A DNA stretch of 23,134 nucleotides, from NCBI GenBank assembly GCA_037137395.1, contig JBAXKK010000038.1:1-23134 (forward strand), given 5' to 3'. Positions 6,001 to 12,000 of the stretch are shown in pieces (positions within the stretch are counted from its first letter, which is position 1; each line of letters begins with the position of its first letter). This stretch comes from Elusimicrobiota bacterium (lineage in GTDB: Bacteria > Elusimicrobiota > Elusimicrobia > Elusimicrobiales > UBA9959). The position numbers were made by a program.

Positions 6001-9000
6001 GGGCGACGGCTAATTCCCGACTTTTCTTAAAATCCTTAAGGAACGCGCCCGAACCGTACTTAACGTCCATTATCAGACCGGTGATATCCTCGGCGTATTT
6101 TTTAGAGAGGATGCTGGCCACTATCAGCGGAAGGGATTCCACTGTGCAGCTGGCGTCGCGCAGAGCGTAAAGCTTTTTATCGCTGGGCGCCAGTTCCGCC
6201 GTCTGGCCGAACATTGAAACGCCGGTGGCCTTAAGCTGCTGGTAAACCTGATCAGAGGTAAGACGCACTTTAAAGCCCTTCATCGCTTCCAGTTTATCCA
6301 GCGTGCCGCCGGTATGCCCCAGGCCCCTGCCGCTCATCATAGGCACAATGACGCCGGCCGCGGCGGCAATTGGCGCCAGAGCCAGAGAAACTCCGTCTCC
6401 GACTCCGCCGGTGGAATGCTTATCCACCCGGCAGCCTTTCAGGCTCTTAAGATCCAGTTTTTTACCGGAAAGCGCCATGGCCTTGGTGAAATCCGCGGTC
6501 TCCTTTCGGGAAAGAGGCTTAAAAAAAGCGGCCATCAGCCAGGCTGAAAGCTGGTAGTCGGGGATGGCGCCGGAAGCCGCACCGTCGGCGATGAATTTTA
6601 GCTCATTAAAATCATGCGCGACGCCGGAACGTTTCTTTAAAATTAAATCAAGCATTCTCATATTATTCCTCGCGTAGCAAAAGTATTAAGTATTAAGTAT
6701 TAAGTATTTAGTATTTAGTATTTAGTATTTAGTATTTAGTATTTAGTATTTAGTATTTAGTATTTAGTTACTTACCACTTATCACTTACTACTTATCCCT
6801 CACACTTTATCAGACTTTAAAACTGTTTCAAGCAGAGCTTTCATTTTAACTGAAACTTTCTCGCCCAGCTTAAGCACGTCGTCGTGGTCCAGTGTCTCCT
6901 TAGAGATGCCGCTGGTGAAATTGGAGATCCAGCACACGCCAAGCACTTTCATCTTGAGCTGGCGGGCCGCTATAACCTCGGGCACTACCGACATTCCGGC
7001 CACGGATCCGCCGAGCATCCTATAGACCTTGACCTCAGTGGGGGTTTCGTAGGAGGGCCCTGTCACGGCGAGGTATACGCCTTCGCTTGCCCTGATTTTC
7101 AACTTGCGGGCGGCTGCGAGAGCTTCCCGCCGCAGGGCCGCGTCGTAGGGCATATTCATGTCCGGAAACATCTCGCCGAAGAGCGGGTCATAATTGCCCA
7201 TAAGAGGATTGGCGCCCATAAAATTTATGTGATCCTTCAGGATCAGAAAATCTCCCGGCCGCAGTGAAGGTTTCAGGGACCCGACAGCCGCGGTAACAAT
7301 AAGCGTCTTTACGCCCAAAAGCCCCAGCACGCGCACGGGGAAGGCGATAAAGCTGAGAGGACGGCCCTCATAATAATGGAAGCGGCCGCGCATAATGACG
7401 ACATCCTTTCCGCGCAGACGGCCGAACACTAATTCTCCCGCGTGACCTTTGACGGTGGTCCGGGGGAAGTTAGGGATGGCGGAATAAGGGATGGAGATCT
7501 TATCCGTCAGTTCAGGCAGAGAATTGGCCAGGCCGCTGCCGGCGATTATGGCGGCGACAGGTTTAAACTTACGGGTCCGGGCCTTAAGCCAGGCCGCGGT
7601 CTTTGAGACGTTAATTACAGGATTTTCGGGGTTCATAAAAATCTCCATGGTCGGGGAATCAAAAAATCCTCTGATCTTCTAATCCTCCAATCCTCTAGTA
7701 TGTATATCCGTCCGCCTGAAAAGCGTTTACGATGTGTTCCGGCTCCGCGCCGCCGCCGGAAAAACATATCACATCAAACCTTACGGTTTCCGGTTTTATG
7801 GCCTTCGCTTTAATATAGACCAGCGCTGCCTTTATCACCTTTTTCTGCTTGGCTTTTGTAACCGTCTCAGCCGGCGAGCCGTATGAGGATGAGGCGCGGG
7901 CCCTTACTTCCACAAAAACCAGCGTGCCGCGATCAGAAGCCACTATATCCAGTTCACCCAGAGCGCAGGCCCAGCGGCGGTCAAGGATCTTATAGCCAAT
8001 GGCTTTTAAATATTCTGCCGCCCTGCCCTCTTCAAGGATGCCGGCGTCGGAACTCACGCGGCCACCGCGCGCGACTCAAGGGCTTTGCGCACCGGGGCGA
8101 AACTCCGCCTGTGTTCGGGGCAGGGGCCCAGGCTGTTAAGAAAGCCCATGTGGGCTTTGGTGCCATAGCCCTTGTGCACGGAAAAATCATAACCGGGCCA
8201 GCGGCGGTCCAGAGCCAGCATCCAGCGGTCTCTGACCACCTTGGCGAATATGCTGGCGGCCGCGATGGAGAGGGATCGGGCGTCTCCGCCAACAACCGTT
8301 TCCTGAGAGAAGGTAAGGCCGCGTATCTTATGCGGCCCGTCCACCATGACCAGGGTGTTAGATTCCAGGGCTCCCAATACCGAGGTAAGGCGGCCTACAG
8401 CGGAGGCCATGGCGGAAAAGGTGGCGTTAAGAATATTCAGCTCGTCTATTTCACGGGGTGAGGCGAAACCGAAACCAAAACGCACACCATAGGAGCGCAT
8501 TACGGCCAGCAGGGCCTCGCGTTTTTTTTCGCTCAGTTTCTTGCTGTCGTTCACTTCTTTGAGGTGCGGATAGGCGGCGAGGGGGATAAAGGCCGCGGCT
8601 GCCGTGACGGGGCCCGCCAAAGGGCCCCTGCCTGCCTCATCAACTCCTATGAGGTAAGCCGGGGCGCTTCGTTCGATAACAGAGAGGTCGAATTTTGAAA
8701 GTGGCACAAGGCTGATAGGCTGAAGAAAGGCCCGGCTGAAGGGAAGCAAACTGACAAATTATATTTAAAACCTTCAGCCTTCAGCCTGACAGCCTCTCCT
8801 TTTACTTGCTCCCGGCAGCCGGGGTCTGGGCCGGAGCGGGGGCCGCGGGCGCGGCTACCGATCCTTCCAGCGCCTCGGTCTTTTCTTCAAGTCTGGCTGA
8901 CTTGCCTGAGAGTTCGCGGAGGTAATAGATCTTGGCGCGGCGGACTTTACCGGTTTTCACCAGTTCTATTTTGTCGATGCGGGGGGAATGCACGGGGAAT

Positions 9001-12000
9001 ACCCTTTCCACACCCACGCCGTATGAAATCTTGCGCACGGTAAAAGATTCGGAAATACCAGAACCTCTCCTGCCCAGAAGCACGCCGTCGAAAACCTGAA
9101 CGCGCTCGCTGTCGCCTTCAACGACCTTGGTGAATACCTTTATGGTATCGCCGGTCCTGAAATCAAATTTTTCATTCTTCATTCCGAGCTGCGCTTCTAT
9201 GTTCTTCATAAACTTCCTCCATTTATTTGCGTATTCATCGTAAAACGGAAAGCGTAAGCCGTAAAAAGTCATGGAACAGATCAAACAACACTTTCCGCTT
9301 CACGATTTACGTTTTACGCTTCGATTCCAACAGATCGGGACGCTTTCTGCCGGTCAGATCTCTGGCGGCGGAGCTTCGCCACTCGGCAATCTTCTTATGA
9401 TTGCCGCCCAAAAGAACTTCCGGCACCTTCATCCTGCGCCAGACTCCTGGTCTGGTGTAATGCGGGGCTTCAAGCAGCCCCTCGGTAAAAGTCTCGTTGA
9501 CCGTGGCGTCCTCTTTTTTGAGCACTCCGGGCAGTAATCTGGCGACGGCGTCTATTATCACGACTGCCGCCGGCTCGCCGCCGGTCAGAACATAATCCCC
9601 TACCGACAATTCCTGATCAGCGAAACTATTCACCCGTTCATCAATCCCTTCATAATGCCCGCAGATGAACACCAGGTGCTTCTTAGCGGCCAGCTTAAGC
9701 GCCATCTGCTGATCGAACCTTTCGCCTTTTGGCGTGAGGATGATAACATGAGAGCCCTTTTTGGCCACCTTTTTAAGGGCCTTGTAAATCGGCTCGGCCA
9801 TCATGACCATGCCGGTTCCGCCGCCGTAAGGCTTGTCGTCAACCGTCTTGTGCCGGTCTTCGGCAAAATCCCTGGGATTGGAGAAGCCCAATTTAAGGCG
9901 CCCCGCTTCCCGGGCCCTTCCAACAATGCTCTCGGAGAGAGGCGCGTCCACCATGGAAGGGAACAGCGTTACGACATCAATGCGCATATATAAAACCAGT
10001 GGTTAGTGGTCAGTGACTAGTGGGCAACAAACAGTGAACAAAACATTTTTACCGTCCGCTGACCACCTAACTCCGTTCACTAACCACTCCTACGGCATAG
10101 CCATAGACTAAATTATATCGAGAAATACTTTTTTATCGCTTTTGGCGGCGGAAGCCTGCAGAAGGGTCCGGATGGATTTAACCACCCGGCCTTCCTTTCC
10201 AATTATCTTGCCGCGGTCCGACGGAGCCACTGTAAGCCTGAACCGCACGACATTGCCGTCCTCATTCGTGGACAGCTTGGCCGCGCCGGGCTCGTCTACT
10301 AAAGAATTTATCAGATAAACCAGGACGTCTTTCATATTCTTTCCCGGCCTCTTATTTCTGGACCTGTTCGGTCTTCTGGGCTTTTTTGGCCCTGGCGATG
10401 AGGGAACCGAGGGTATCGGAAGCCTTCGCGCCGTTTTTGACCCAACGGTCAAGCTTGGGCATGTCGAAAGAGACTTTTTCATTATCCTTTTCCGCTTTAG
10501 GATTATAATGCCCGATAATTTCAAGCGGGGCGCCGTGAGGGCCGCGGGTCTTTTCTATCGCCACGATCCGGTAATGCGGCTGAGTTCTTTTGCCGATTCT
10601 CTGAAGTCTTAAAACAACTGCCATACTCGTCCTCCTAAGCTGACTGGAATCATCACAAGATGAAATTTTCTGAAAGCGTTACCGCTCAGGATTCAGGTTA
10701 ACCTGAGTAGTAAGTATATTATACGATATTTCAGGCAGCTTGACCCAGGATCTTATTGACATGTCCCAGGAGATGCTTCCATTCAAAAGGCTTGCGTATA
10801 TAAATTTCCGCCGCTGAATGGCCCTCGGCCGTCGTATCGCCGGCGAAAGCGTGCCCCGTGAGCATTATAACCTTCACTCCCTTGGTGGCCGGCTCGCTTT
10901 TGATAAGTTTACGAAGACTGTCACCGTCTATAAAGGGGAGCCCGATATCCAAAATAGCCAGATCGGGATGCTCTTTCCTGGCCATACTGAGCCCCTCCTC
11001 TCCGTCATGAGCTACGACAACTTGATAGCCGTGGTGTTCAAGGCGCATACGAAGCACCTGGGCTATCAATTCCTCATCCTCAACAATAAGTATTTTTTTC
11101 TTCATAAAAGTTGTTTTCCATTAATCCGGGCATTCAGCTTCCGAACAAACCCGGCTGGATCGGAATTTGAAAAAACGGCTTTTCCCATGACAAGGGAATC
11201 AGCCCCTGCCCGCGCGGCCAACGGCGCGGTATCTTCGTTAATACCGCCGTCCACCTGCAGCCACACGGGCCGGCCGAGGCCGGTTATCGCGCGGCGCGCC
11301 TCGGAAATTTTTGACAGGATGCCGGGCATAAAAGACTGGCCGCCAAAGCCCGGCTCCACCGTCATAAGCAGGAGTAAATCCACGCGCCCGAGATACTTTA
11401 AAGCGCGGGAAAGAGGTGTTTTGGGCCGCAGCGCTAGGCCGGCTTTCAGACCCAGCGAGCGTATTTTTTTAAGGCACGCGCCTATATCGTCCTTCGCCTC
11501 CTGGTGCACGGTTATAAGACTGACGCCGGCGCTCGCGAAAGGTTGTATAAACATAGCGGGGCGCTCCACCATAAGGTGCGCGTCCAGGGCCATAGGAGTC
11601 GCGGCCGCCAAACCGCGCGCGACATGGGGACCAAAACTGAGGTTCGGCACGAAATGGCCGTCCATAACATCCAGCTGCACCCAACCGGCATGGCGCTCCA
11701 GGCCCCGCAGACTTTTTTTAAGGCAGGAGAAATCGGCCGAGAGCACCGAAGGCACGATGCGAGGCCTCCCGTCGGGCGTAGGAATGATTTTATTTTTATT
11801 CATCACTGAAATTATCCGCAAAATCCGCCAATAAGGAGTCCCCAGTCCTCTAGTCCTCTAGTCCTCTAGTCCTCTAGTCCTCTAGTCCTCTACTTCACTT
11901 CGCGTTCTTCCACCAGGATGCCGTTGATGAATATCCTGATCTTGTCGGCGCCGCCGTAGGGAACCGTAAGGTCTATCTTAGAACCCGGATCCCTGAGCCC

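Follow-up and report, generated by a model that had tools for sequence, protein, structure and literature searches.

The signal recognition particle (SRP) is regarded as universal, and its GTPases as older than LUCA (Harris and Goldman 2021, PMC7987157). In E. coli the gene order is ffh-rpsP-rimM-trmD-rplS. In the Elusimicrobiota assembly GCA_037137395.1 (the source genome), the rpsP locus lies on contig JBAXKK010000038.1, the 23,134 nucleotides of which are the window analyzed here, and ffh is not in its place. The locus thus raises the question of whether Ffh, its receptor FtsY, and SRP RNA are absent from the genome and from its phylum, and, if so, how membrane proteins are delivered.

The rpsP locus and the source genome

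All genes of the locus lie on the minus strand. Downstream of rpsP (ribosomal protein S16, 10352-10624; TIGR00002, 72.6 bits, cut-off 45.3) are a khpA-like gene for a KH-domain RNA-binding protein (10108-10335; PRK00468, E = 3e-18, under the curated cut-off), trmD (9307-9987; PRK00026, 311 bits, cut-off 220), and rplS (ribosomal protein L19, 8802-9206; TIGR01024, 150.5 bits, cut-off 90.7). Only 120 bp separate khpA from trmD, so rimM is missing from the operon, and the RimM N-domain was not found in the source genome. The position of E. coli ffh, directly upstream of rpsP (10625-11105), holds a 106-bp intergenic stretch and a gene for a stand-alone receiver-domain protein (response regulator) of 124 aa (10731-11105), followed by rpe (11102-11803; TIGR01163) and a PASTA-domain gene (11890-12891; NF033483). 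Neither ffh, nor a remnant of it, nor rimM was found in this locus, and the window gave no Rfam match to SRP RNA at E ≤ 1.

The first-pass annotation had drawn attention to the response regulator that stands where ffh would be expected. The gene is indeed there, but its presence carries no significance: a counterpart occurs in 0 of 30 other rpsP loci of the phylum, and rpe lies upstream of rpsP in 7 of 30, which makes the regulator a local insertion and rules it out as a substitute for SRP, its position being incidental. The PASTA gene is upstream in 6 of 30 loci, and khpA follows rpsP in 28 of 30; rpe or the PASTA gene upstream of rpsP is the arrangement that remains after loss of ffh.

Searches of the whole source genome agreed with the earlier report that Ffh, FtsY, the M domain, and SRP RNA cannot be found in it. 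For PF00448 all 45 candidates were scored, and the best was again 21.7 bits, with matches confined to model positions 3-77; PF02978 (M domain) did not exceed 13 bits (cut-off 27). Queried by tblastn, Ffh and FtsY of E. coli hit only P-loops (best E = 0.014-0.65), a census of GTPase motifs returned nine of TRAFAC type and none of SRP type, and neither the stretch downstream of smc nor the surroundings of rsmD contain ftsY. Both RNA models were negative, including RF01854 (large SRP RNA), previously flagged as a gap and now run (none at E ≤ 10). E. coli ffs gave a best E of 3.4 by nhmmer, and a loose helix-8 sequence pattern gave 33 candidate matches. An SRP RNA remnant upstream of dnaX was considered and rejected, as an unrelated protein gene occupies the site and Rfam is negative there. 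The assembly consists of 174 contigs with 7.71% contamination, and S10, the EF-Tu G1 motif, and 23S rRNA were not found in it either; the proof therefore lies in the phylum census and not in this genome.

SRP components across the phylum

PF00448 matched in 2 of 401 phylum genomes, in 1 of 122 from one further class, and in 2 of 393 from the source genome's own class (7-23 candidates scored per genome in the large runs). Combined, the census comprises 533 distinct Elusimicrobiota genomes from more than 35 families, with two classes covered in full (the total is arithmetic over family tallies of overlapping runs), and contains three distinct matches and no Ffh. The M domain was found in 0 of 251 genomes, and three single-contig and two near-closed genomes, with all candidates scored, gave P-loop fragments only. 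The earlier claim that the absence is phylum-wide, single-contig genomes included, is thus upheld. The same SRP54 search gave two and three matches in two bins of other phyla, and PF00448 detects FlhF, which shares ~30% identity with Ffh and FtsY, with E-values of 1e-35 to 1e-42. For the RNA, RF00169 (small SRP RNA) matched in 0 of 150 phylum genomes and 0 of 3 in an additional set, and RF01854 in 0 of 141 and 0 of 5; RF00169 detects 12 of 14 control genomes and both RNA models miss some controls, so that a divergent RNA could escape them and the absence of the RNA is a weaker result than that of the proteins.

Two of the three PF00448 matches (L004 and L005) are FlhF: their top model is TIGR03499 (223 bits, and 168.9 bits, just under the cut-off of 174.15), far above their ffh and ftsY scores, and neither has a PF02978 M domain. 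Their genes directly follow flhA, in the orders flhA-flhF-flhG and flhA-flhF-fliM-fliN (neighbors identified by eye). Occurring in 2 of 533 genomes and in a flagellar setting, FlhF was rejected as an SRP substitute. The third match is a spirochaete-type FtsY from a fragmented bin (G458), where its contig is 1,308 bp long; it is 76% identical to Marispirochaeta FtsY, its named relatives are all spirochaetes, and the bin yielded no second SRP54-family gene and no SRP RNA.

That SRP is present but concealed by extreme divergence or assembly gaps is highly improbable. Such concealment could draw on the further essential genes missing from the source genome, on the two controls missed by the RNA model, on the equal GC content of the FtsY contig and bin G458 (0.62 and 0.62), and on a single Ffh and a single FtsY that Harris and Goldman list under Elusimicrobia (OGS35541 and OGS33922). 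Against it stand the sensitivity of the model to FlhF, the negative single-contig and near-closed genomes, the provenance of the G458 FtsY, and the detection of control genes in 95-100% of phylum samples (YidC in 119/121, SecY in 60/61, trigger factor in 58/61, S16 in 61/61, and SecA in 41/41). The searches of Elusimicrobiota genomes thus yielded no native Ffh, FtsY, or SRP RNA, while SecY, SecA, YidC, and trigger factor are retained across the samples; a single loss of all three SRP parts, predating the divergence of the sampled families, is very probable. Ffh and FtsY are consequently unsuited as universal markers in this phylum, and a copy in such a bin is a sign of contamination.

The retained translocon and its changes

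The source genome also has SecE, SecG, SecD, SecF, and YajC. By our own gene calls, 517 of its 2314 genes encode membrane proteins, 261 of them with at least three helices, in line with the several hundred stated earlier; with SRP not found, their delivery must be SRP-independent. The housekeeping SecY is ordinary in fold (45-49% identical to E. coli SecY), with ten helices, the plug, loops C4/C5 with R357 and Y429, and an spc-operon location. Among the equivalents of E. coli R255/R256, R357, and Y429, the latter two are invariant and Asn replaces R255 in 9 of 31 sequences. In SecA the N-terminal helix and the Cys motif at the C-terminus are conserved, and trigger factor keeps its ribosome-binding motif.

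The only phylum-wide translocon changes found are an aromatic SecY tail and a longer SecA PPXD loop. E. coli SecY ends in ...LKGYGR, whereas Elusimicrobiota SecY adds an invariant Trp-Phe-Asn, giving a G-R-W-F-N extension beyond the usual basic GRxKGR end. The RWFN tail is present in 31 of 31 phylum SecY sequences, which were chosen by HMM score and not by tail, and in 2 of the best 150 SecY cluster representatives (one per 50% cluster, so that RWFN-bearing members may be hidden inside clusters). A DNA pattern for the tail, which demands exact spacing, was run on species genomes; among at least 119 matches listed, 118 are SecY and 111 belong to named Elusimicrobiota members. A homolog search seeded with the SecY tail (120/120 RWFN) is circular and was used for taxon names only. 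An aromatic last residue also occurs in some other SecY representatives (P0124, P0127, P0133, and P0135). The conserved PPXD loop of SecA has 47 residues vs. 38 in E. coli; Thermus SecA has a long, unrelated loop at the same site. In AlphaFold models, SecY residues 422-442 have pLDDT < 50, too low to show a pocket, and a predicted complex of SecA 1-815 with SecY 408-442 scored 0.24 (mark 0.32), which speaks neither for nor against such a contact. The link between the tail and SRP loss comes from one lineage, and the tail may simply mark the clade without bearing on SRP.

Other compensations were looked for. Loss or membrane anchoring of trigger factor was rejected, given its retention and the lack of an N-terminal anchor among the 23 loci listed. 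Exit-site membrane anchors were not found: uL23, uL29, and uL24 carry no extension in 19-20 of 20 genomes, the proteins being ordinary, with a uL24 tip loop ~2 residues shorter than that of E. coli. A change in 23S helix 59 is not uniform (retained in four of five genomes, deleted in G031). A divergent SecY paralog (L231) fails as a phylum-wide substitute: it occurs in 1 of 151 genomes, the other listed matches being weak and mostly canonical SecY. By crude Kyte-Doolittle helix calls on our own gene calls, first helices are not less hydrophobic than in a 223-gene E. coli sample (2.11 vs. 2.16, P = 0.50), and the P value for the difference over all helices (2.06 vs. 2.11, P = 0.04) treats helices that are not independent.

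Membrane protein delivery without SRP

Our best explanation, which we consider somewhat probable, is that the back-up routes of E. coli became the main membrane-protein route, with ribosomes docking on SecYEG-YidC with the help of SecA. SecY itself would receive the translating ribosome, through its C-terminal tail and the loops on its cytoplasmic side; helices leaving the ribosome would be passed to SecYEG-YidC, and ribosome-bound SecA would assist some substrates. Published work describes a pocket for the emerging helix that is formed by SecY loops, tail, and the uL24 tip (PMC13434473), binding of SecA by the SecY tail (PMC6599042), co-translational targeting of a membrane protein by SecA (PMC5674894), and contacts of SecY loops C4-C6 with both ribosomes and mRNA (PMC10066597). 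Elusimicrobiota share the SecY core and tail base of the E. coli SecYEG-YidC insertase (PMC13434473). Where the ribosomal tunnel opens, the E. coli tail lines a hydrophobic pocket in which an emerging helix is held, so the Trp-Phe of Elusimicrobiota may widen this pocket or strengthen the docking of ribosomes or SecA; by this analogy, a pocket or docking role for RWFN is conceivable but doubtful, and it is the weakest step. Less likely again is built-in signal recognition, in which the Trp-Phe tail, SecY loops 6/7 and 8/9, and uL24 would catch the first helix at the exit and hold the ribosome on the channel. Were it true, one short peptide would replace Ffh, FtsY, and 4.5S RNA throughout a phylum, and the tail could be grafted onto the SecY of another bacterium, easing its need for SRP.

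SRP may instead have been lost without any adaptation of the translocon, with ribosomes given enough time to find SecYEG by slow translation, small cell size, and buffering by chaperones or proteases, and with RWFN an unrelated mark of the clade. We regard this as rather unlikely. Translation slowing is the mode of E. coli SRP suppressors (PMC8299109), cell geometry has been suggested for Leptospira (PMC4758666), the source genome encodes FtsH and HtpX homologs, the exit-site proteins are ordinary, and proteins with at least three helices make up a smaller share in the source genome (11% vs. 17% in a 250-kb E. coli sample); however, the first helix is not followed by a run of rare codons (P = 0.92), and four terminal SecY residues invariant in all sampled families imply a binding function. 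That invariant tail and the SecA loop could be binding sites for an undescribed, phylum-specific targeting factor, protein or RNA, that took over an essential function absent from every sampled family. We think this unlikely, since no recurring unfamiliar gene lies beside secA, tig, yidC, or rpsP (24-30 loci each, 1.5-kb flanks, counting only genes with a match in the source genome), the sole ArsA/Get3-like ATPase found in the source genome sits in a gas-vesicle-like cluster, and FlhF and L231 are rare.

A main route by mRNA localization, with mRNAs held at SecYEG/YidC, possibly via KhpA and Jag/KhpB, and translated there, is very unlikely. In E. coli, mRNA targeting circumvents SRP by way of SecY loops C4-C6 (PMC10066597). 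In Elusimicrobiota a jag-like gene follows yidC in 29 of 30 loci, khpA follows rpsP nearly as regularly, and the SecY tail, being basic and aromatic, might stack on RNA. Polytopic genes of the source genome, however, show no synonymous U enrichment (0.193 vs. 0.192, P = 0.83), and KhpA and Jag occur widely in bacteria that do have SRP. Least credible is YidC as a ribosome receptor via a long basic C-terminal tail, as in mitochondrial Oxa1 and S. mutans YidC2 (PMC10066597, PMC8321541). YidC is nearly always present, but in the 29 of 30 loci parsed only 5-21 residues (mostly 5-11) follow the last helix, with a charge of 0 to +6 and no conservation, so that this tether of S. mutans is not used by Elusimicrobiota and the idea is largely refuted.

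In the reports drawn on here, SRP is bypassed in E. coli and S. mutans by SecA targeting (PMC5674894), mRNA targeting (PMC10066597), translation-slowing suppressors (PMC8299109), and YidC2-dependent survival (PMC8546722, PMC10066597); SecYEG and YidC can thus be reached without SRP, and the parts needed are all present in Elusimicrobiota, but what is a back-up in those SRP-bearing cells is here a permanent state. Of the earlier suggestion of an SRP-independent route still to be found, the independence stands, but the known routes make an entirely new one unnecessary. Nor is SRP loss new in kind: Leptospira, Dehalococcoides, and apparently SAR86 are SRP-less (Fouts et al. 2016, PMC4758666). As in Leptospira, Ffh, FtsY, and the RNA are all lost and SecYEG, SecA, and YidC kept; unlike these genera or small lineages, the Elusimicrobiota case spans the whole census. 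The extra low-complexity gene reported among Leptospira sec genes has no parallel seen beside those of Elusimicrobiota. Harris and Goldman (2021) noted few SRP homologs in "some Elusimicrobia", with neither a census nor an RNA search; 3 of 15 of their SecY entries examined (of 20) are strongly divergent, plug-less, and paralog-like, and the long SecY branches in their tree probably reflect such paralogs. New here are the phylum scale, the loss of the RNA, the status of some divergent "SecY" entries as extra paralogs, and an ordinary housekeeping SecY with RWFN.

The phylum is not simply free-living, as the first-pass annotation had it; besides lineages from groundwater, its named records comprise Endomicrobium and lineages from the rumen. 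Sampled genomes range from 1.0 to 4.3 Mb in host-bound and environmental members, and with such varied sizes and mixed lifestyles, SRP loss has been stable over deep time and cannot be put down to genome reduction alone. Cultured members include Elusimicrobium minutum and Endomicrobium proavitum. SRP-free targeting has so far been studied mainly in depleted or suppressor strains; Elusimicrobiota offer a natural case, and RWFN is a four-residue candidate adaptation testable in E. coli.

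SRP components across the phylum

The SRP54 GTPase domain (PF00448, E ≤ 1e-5) was detected in 2 of 401 genomes of a phylum sample, in 1 of 122 genomes of the class of genome G016, and in 2 of 393 genomes of the class to which the source genome (G000) belongs. Neither class search reached the 400 genomes requested, so both were taken as complete. Adding the 18 genomes that the 401-genome sample contributes from other classes brings the total to 533 distinct genomes (arithmetic on family tallies) and three distinct hits. The Ffh M domain (PF02978) was found in none of 251 genomes, the small SRP RNA (RF00169) in none of 150, and the large SRP RNA (RF01854) in none of 141; the large runs scored just 7–23 candidates per genome, and the RNA models were detected in 12/14 (RF00169) and 9/14 (RF01854) control genomes. 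In five genomes, three of them single-contig and two near-closed, every candidate was scored; PF00448 returned P-loop fragments only (≤19 bits) and RF01854 nothing. Positive controls were recovered from phylum samples (YidC: 119/121; SecY: 60/61; trigger factor: 58/61; S16: 61/61; SecA: 41/41), and two bins from other phyla gave 2 and 3 SRP54-family hits.

Each of the three hits has an explanation. Two (L004 and L005) are FlhF: their best model is TIGR03499 (223 and 168.9 bits, respectively; cut-off 174.15), they lack the M domain, and they lie directly after flhA. Flagellar export clusters (flhA, flhF, fliM/N, fliP/Q/R, and a flhB-like gene) were read at G121:C51 (L006) and G320:C29 (L007), and FlhF was otherwise not found in the phylum outside these two genomes. 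The third hit (L305) is a genuine FtsY. It sits on a contig of 1,308 bp in a 490-contig bin, where neither another SRP54-family gene nor an SRP RNA was found. Every relative of it that carries a name is a spirochaete (76% to Marispirochaeta), and closer matches without a taxon name reach 91–95%. The GC content of the contig is no different from that of its host, so the reading of L305 as contamination draws on its relatives and the contig size.

These counts bear out the phylum-wide absence of SRP proposed in the first-pass annotation, and we have very little doubt that the loss in Elusimicrobiota is real; it is well supported at phylum scale. The simplest history would be a single loss event before the sampled families split.

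The source assembly (174 contigs, completeness 98.89%, contamination 7.71%) agrees with the census. The best PF00448 match was 21.7 bits (cut-off 22.7) and covered the P-loop only, with all 45 candidates scored; PF02978 reached at most 13 bits, and E. coli Ffh and FtsY used as queries gave P-loop matches only. RF01854, which the first-pass annotation had left unrun, was also blank. One such assembly cannot prove loss, because other parts are missing too: among 41 conserved E. coli queries, S10 was missing as well as Ffh and FtsY (Der gave a short match, possibly a cross-hit), the EF-Tu G1 motif did not turn up, and the 23S rRNA was not assembled. S10 is present in 17 of 20 fetched S10-spc stretches (L324–L343) and does not stand in front of rplC in G000 (C3); L30 was found neither in any of the 20 nor in G000.

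The rpsP locus in the window

The minus strand of the window carries rplS, trmD, a khpA-like KH gene, rpsP, and a stand-alone receiver-domain gene (8802–11105), the last preceded on the same strand by rpe and a PASTA gene. The immediate upstream neighbor of rpsP in E. coli is ffh, and rimM separates rpsP from trmD there; the window lacks both. A response regulator does occupy the usual place of ffh, as had been claimed, and its position is incidental, since it had no match at the other rpsP loci (0 of the 30 best scoring in a 61-genome sample, with 1.5-kb flanks). Upstream of rpsP in the same set, rpe recurs at 7/30 loci and the PASTA gene at 6/30. With the regulator unmatched elsewhere while rpe and PASTA recur, the underlying order is PASTA-rpe-rpsP, into which the regulator was inserted locally; it is not a substitute for ffh.

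In G000, rimM is absent from the operon (window 9988–10107), and the RimM N-domain model scored below its cut-off in all five genomes tested. Many rpsP loci of family f16 (within L233–L262) retain an ORF of ~100 aa resembling the C-terminal barrel alone, and two of the fetched loci (L235 and L259) retain a full-length-looking rimM gene. Elsewhere in the window (14644–17266), a 667-aa APC-type transporter carrying a soluble domain at its C terminus adjoins a PTS IIA-like gene (167 aa), both read by eye.

Membrane-protein load and the Sec machinery

The membrane-protein load of G000 is normal in kind. Of the 2314 genes predicted by our own gene caller, 517 probably encode membrane proteins, and 261 encode proteins with at least three helices. 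First-helix hydrophobicity did not differ (P = 0.50) from that in a sample of 223 E. coli genes, and the polytopic share was lower, at 11% vs. 17% in E. coli, whose sample is small and nonrandom. The genome contains SecE, SecG, SecF, YajC, the start of SecD, FtsH, and HtpX; TatC was not found with an E. coli query.

The housekeeping SecY has the usual fold, is 45–49% identical to that of E. coli, and keeps R357 and Y429 invariant. Its C-terminal tail is likewise invariant and nearly restricted to the phylum. In 31/31 sequences (G000 and the 30 best scoring of 60), the protein terminates with R-W-F-N followed by a few residues, and RWF occurs in 2 of the 150 best SecY representatives (50% identity), namely the top hit and one divergent sequence; many other representatives finish with a basic GRxRGRR. 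Among named sequences, those most closely related to the C-terminal region of G000 SecY are nearly all labeled Elusimicrobia. A DNA pattern for the tail matched at least 119 rows of a species-genome collection; among the matches listed, 118 were SecY and one was a chance match. Of these 118, 111 carry names of members of this phylum, counting Ruminimicrobiellum, Proendomicrobium, and Parendomicrobium, which we take to belong to Elusimicrobiota. Another listed match lies on a 1.8-kb contig from a Pseudomonadota bin with its own SecY and SRP, and a further one (L171/L228, G407) is a 1.9-Mb genome labeled Ignavibacteria, in which an Elusimicrobiota-type protein is the sole SecY and the M domain is absent; this record is probably mislabeled. 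In the single-chain model, residues 422–442 are disordered (pLDDT below 50).

The SecA PPXD loop is conserved at 47 residues (26/30 sequences, parsed by pattern), compared with 38 in E. coli; in Thermotoga it is shorter by about 20, and Thermus has a long but unrelated loop there. The insertion (SecA of G000:C1:59586–62234 and L269–L298) includes several invariant residues.

Several other possible replacements for SRP were looked for and not found. YidC has no long basic tail, its tails having 5–21 residues (29/30 loci); trigger factor was found neither lost nor membrane anchored, and no extension of uL23, uL29, or uL24 was found. Helix 59 of the 23S rRNA contacts SRP in E. coli, and a uniform change there is contradicted by its retention in 4/5 sequences. 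The 23S rRNAs of G031 (L321) and G022 (L320) lack ~33 nt around helix 58, G031 also lacking helix 59, and that of G124 carries a 359-nt insertion near position 2458. Neither synonymous U enrichment nor a codon pause was found, nor was a recurring unknown gene adjoining secA, tig, yidC, or rpsP. No housekeeping Get3-like ATPase was found in G000, whose one copy found sits in a gas-vesicle-like cluster; by eye, G000:C13:1–10000 reads as such a cluster, with a GvpN-like AAA ATPase, a GvpL/F-like protein, Hsp20, an ArsA-like ATPase, and a Cdc48-like ATPase.

Precedents and a possible targeting route

Bacteria without SRP are already known, and the Elusimicrobiota case is hinted at in print. Fouts et al. 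(2016, PMC4758666) report that none of Ffh, FtsY, and the RNA occurs in Leptospira, and that Dehalococcoides and apparently SAR86 are without the SRP system. Harris and Goldman (2021, PMC7987157) report few members of Elusimicrobia with SRP homologs, one Ffh and one FtsY so labeled (OGS35541 and OGS33922), and propose that a long-branch SecY compensates. Within their supplement, three of 15 SecY entries (of 20; N-terminal parts) diverge strongly and have no plug region. Comparable to these is the second, strongly divergent SecY-like gene at L231:1228–2571 (minus strand, 448 aa, between atpD-like and purC-like genes), which is 25% identical to the housekeeping SecY over part of its length and occurs in 1/151 genomes. 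The open literature, which leaves out the bulk of subscription papers and with them early genome papers on the phylum, yielded no phylum-wide SRP census; the available portions of PMC7203096, PMC8321541, PMC8082313, and PMC8546722 hold nothing about this phylum. Within the literature searched, the whole-phylum scale and the inclusion of the RNA are new.

From the observed absence of SRP and presence of the other parts, we infer function with the help of published work. Loops C4–C6 of E. coli SecY bind ribosomes, targeting factors, and mRNA (PMC10066597), and its tail binds SecA via Tyr and Phe residues (PMC6599042). A structure of the ribosome with SecYEG and YidC shows a hydrophobic pocket that holds an emerging helix and is built from the C-terminal extension, loops 6/7 and 8/9, and the uL24 tip (PMC13434473). 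Cotranslational targeting of a membrane protein by SecA is possible (PMC5674894), and SRP loss is offset by slower translation (PMC8299109). On these data we lean slightly toward a route, taken as a whole, in which ribosomes would dock directly on SecYEG-YidC with the help of SecA. The Trp-Phe extension of SecY may be an adaptation to this route, its link to SRP loss being a candidate one drawn from a single lineage. As far as our searches reach, the RWFN motif itself not being among their subjects, this four-residue SecY candidate is new, and it offers a testable site at which membrane-protein targeting in Elusimicrobiota may have adapted to life without SRP.
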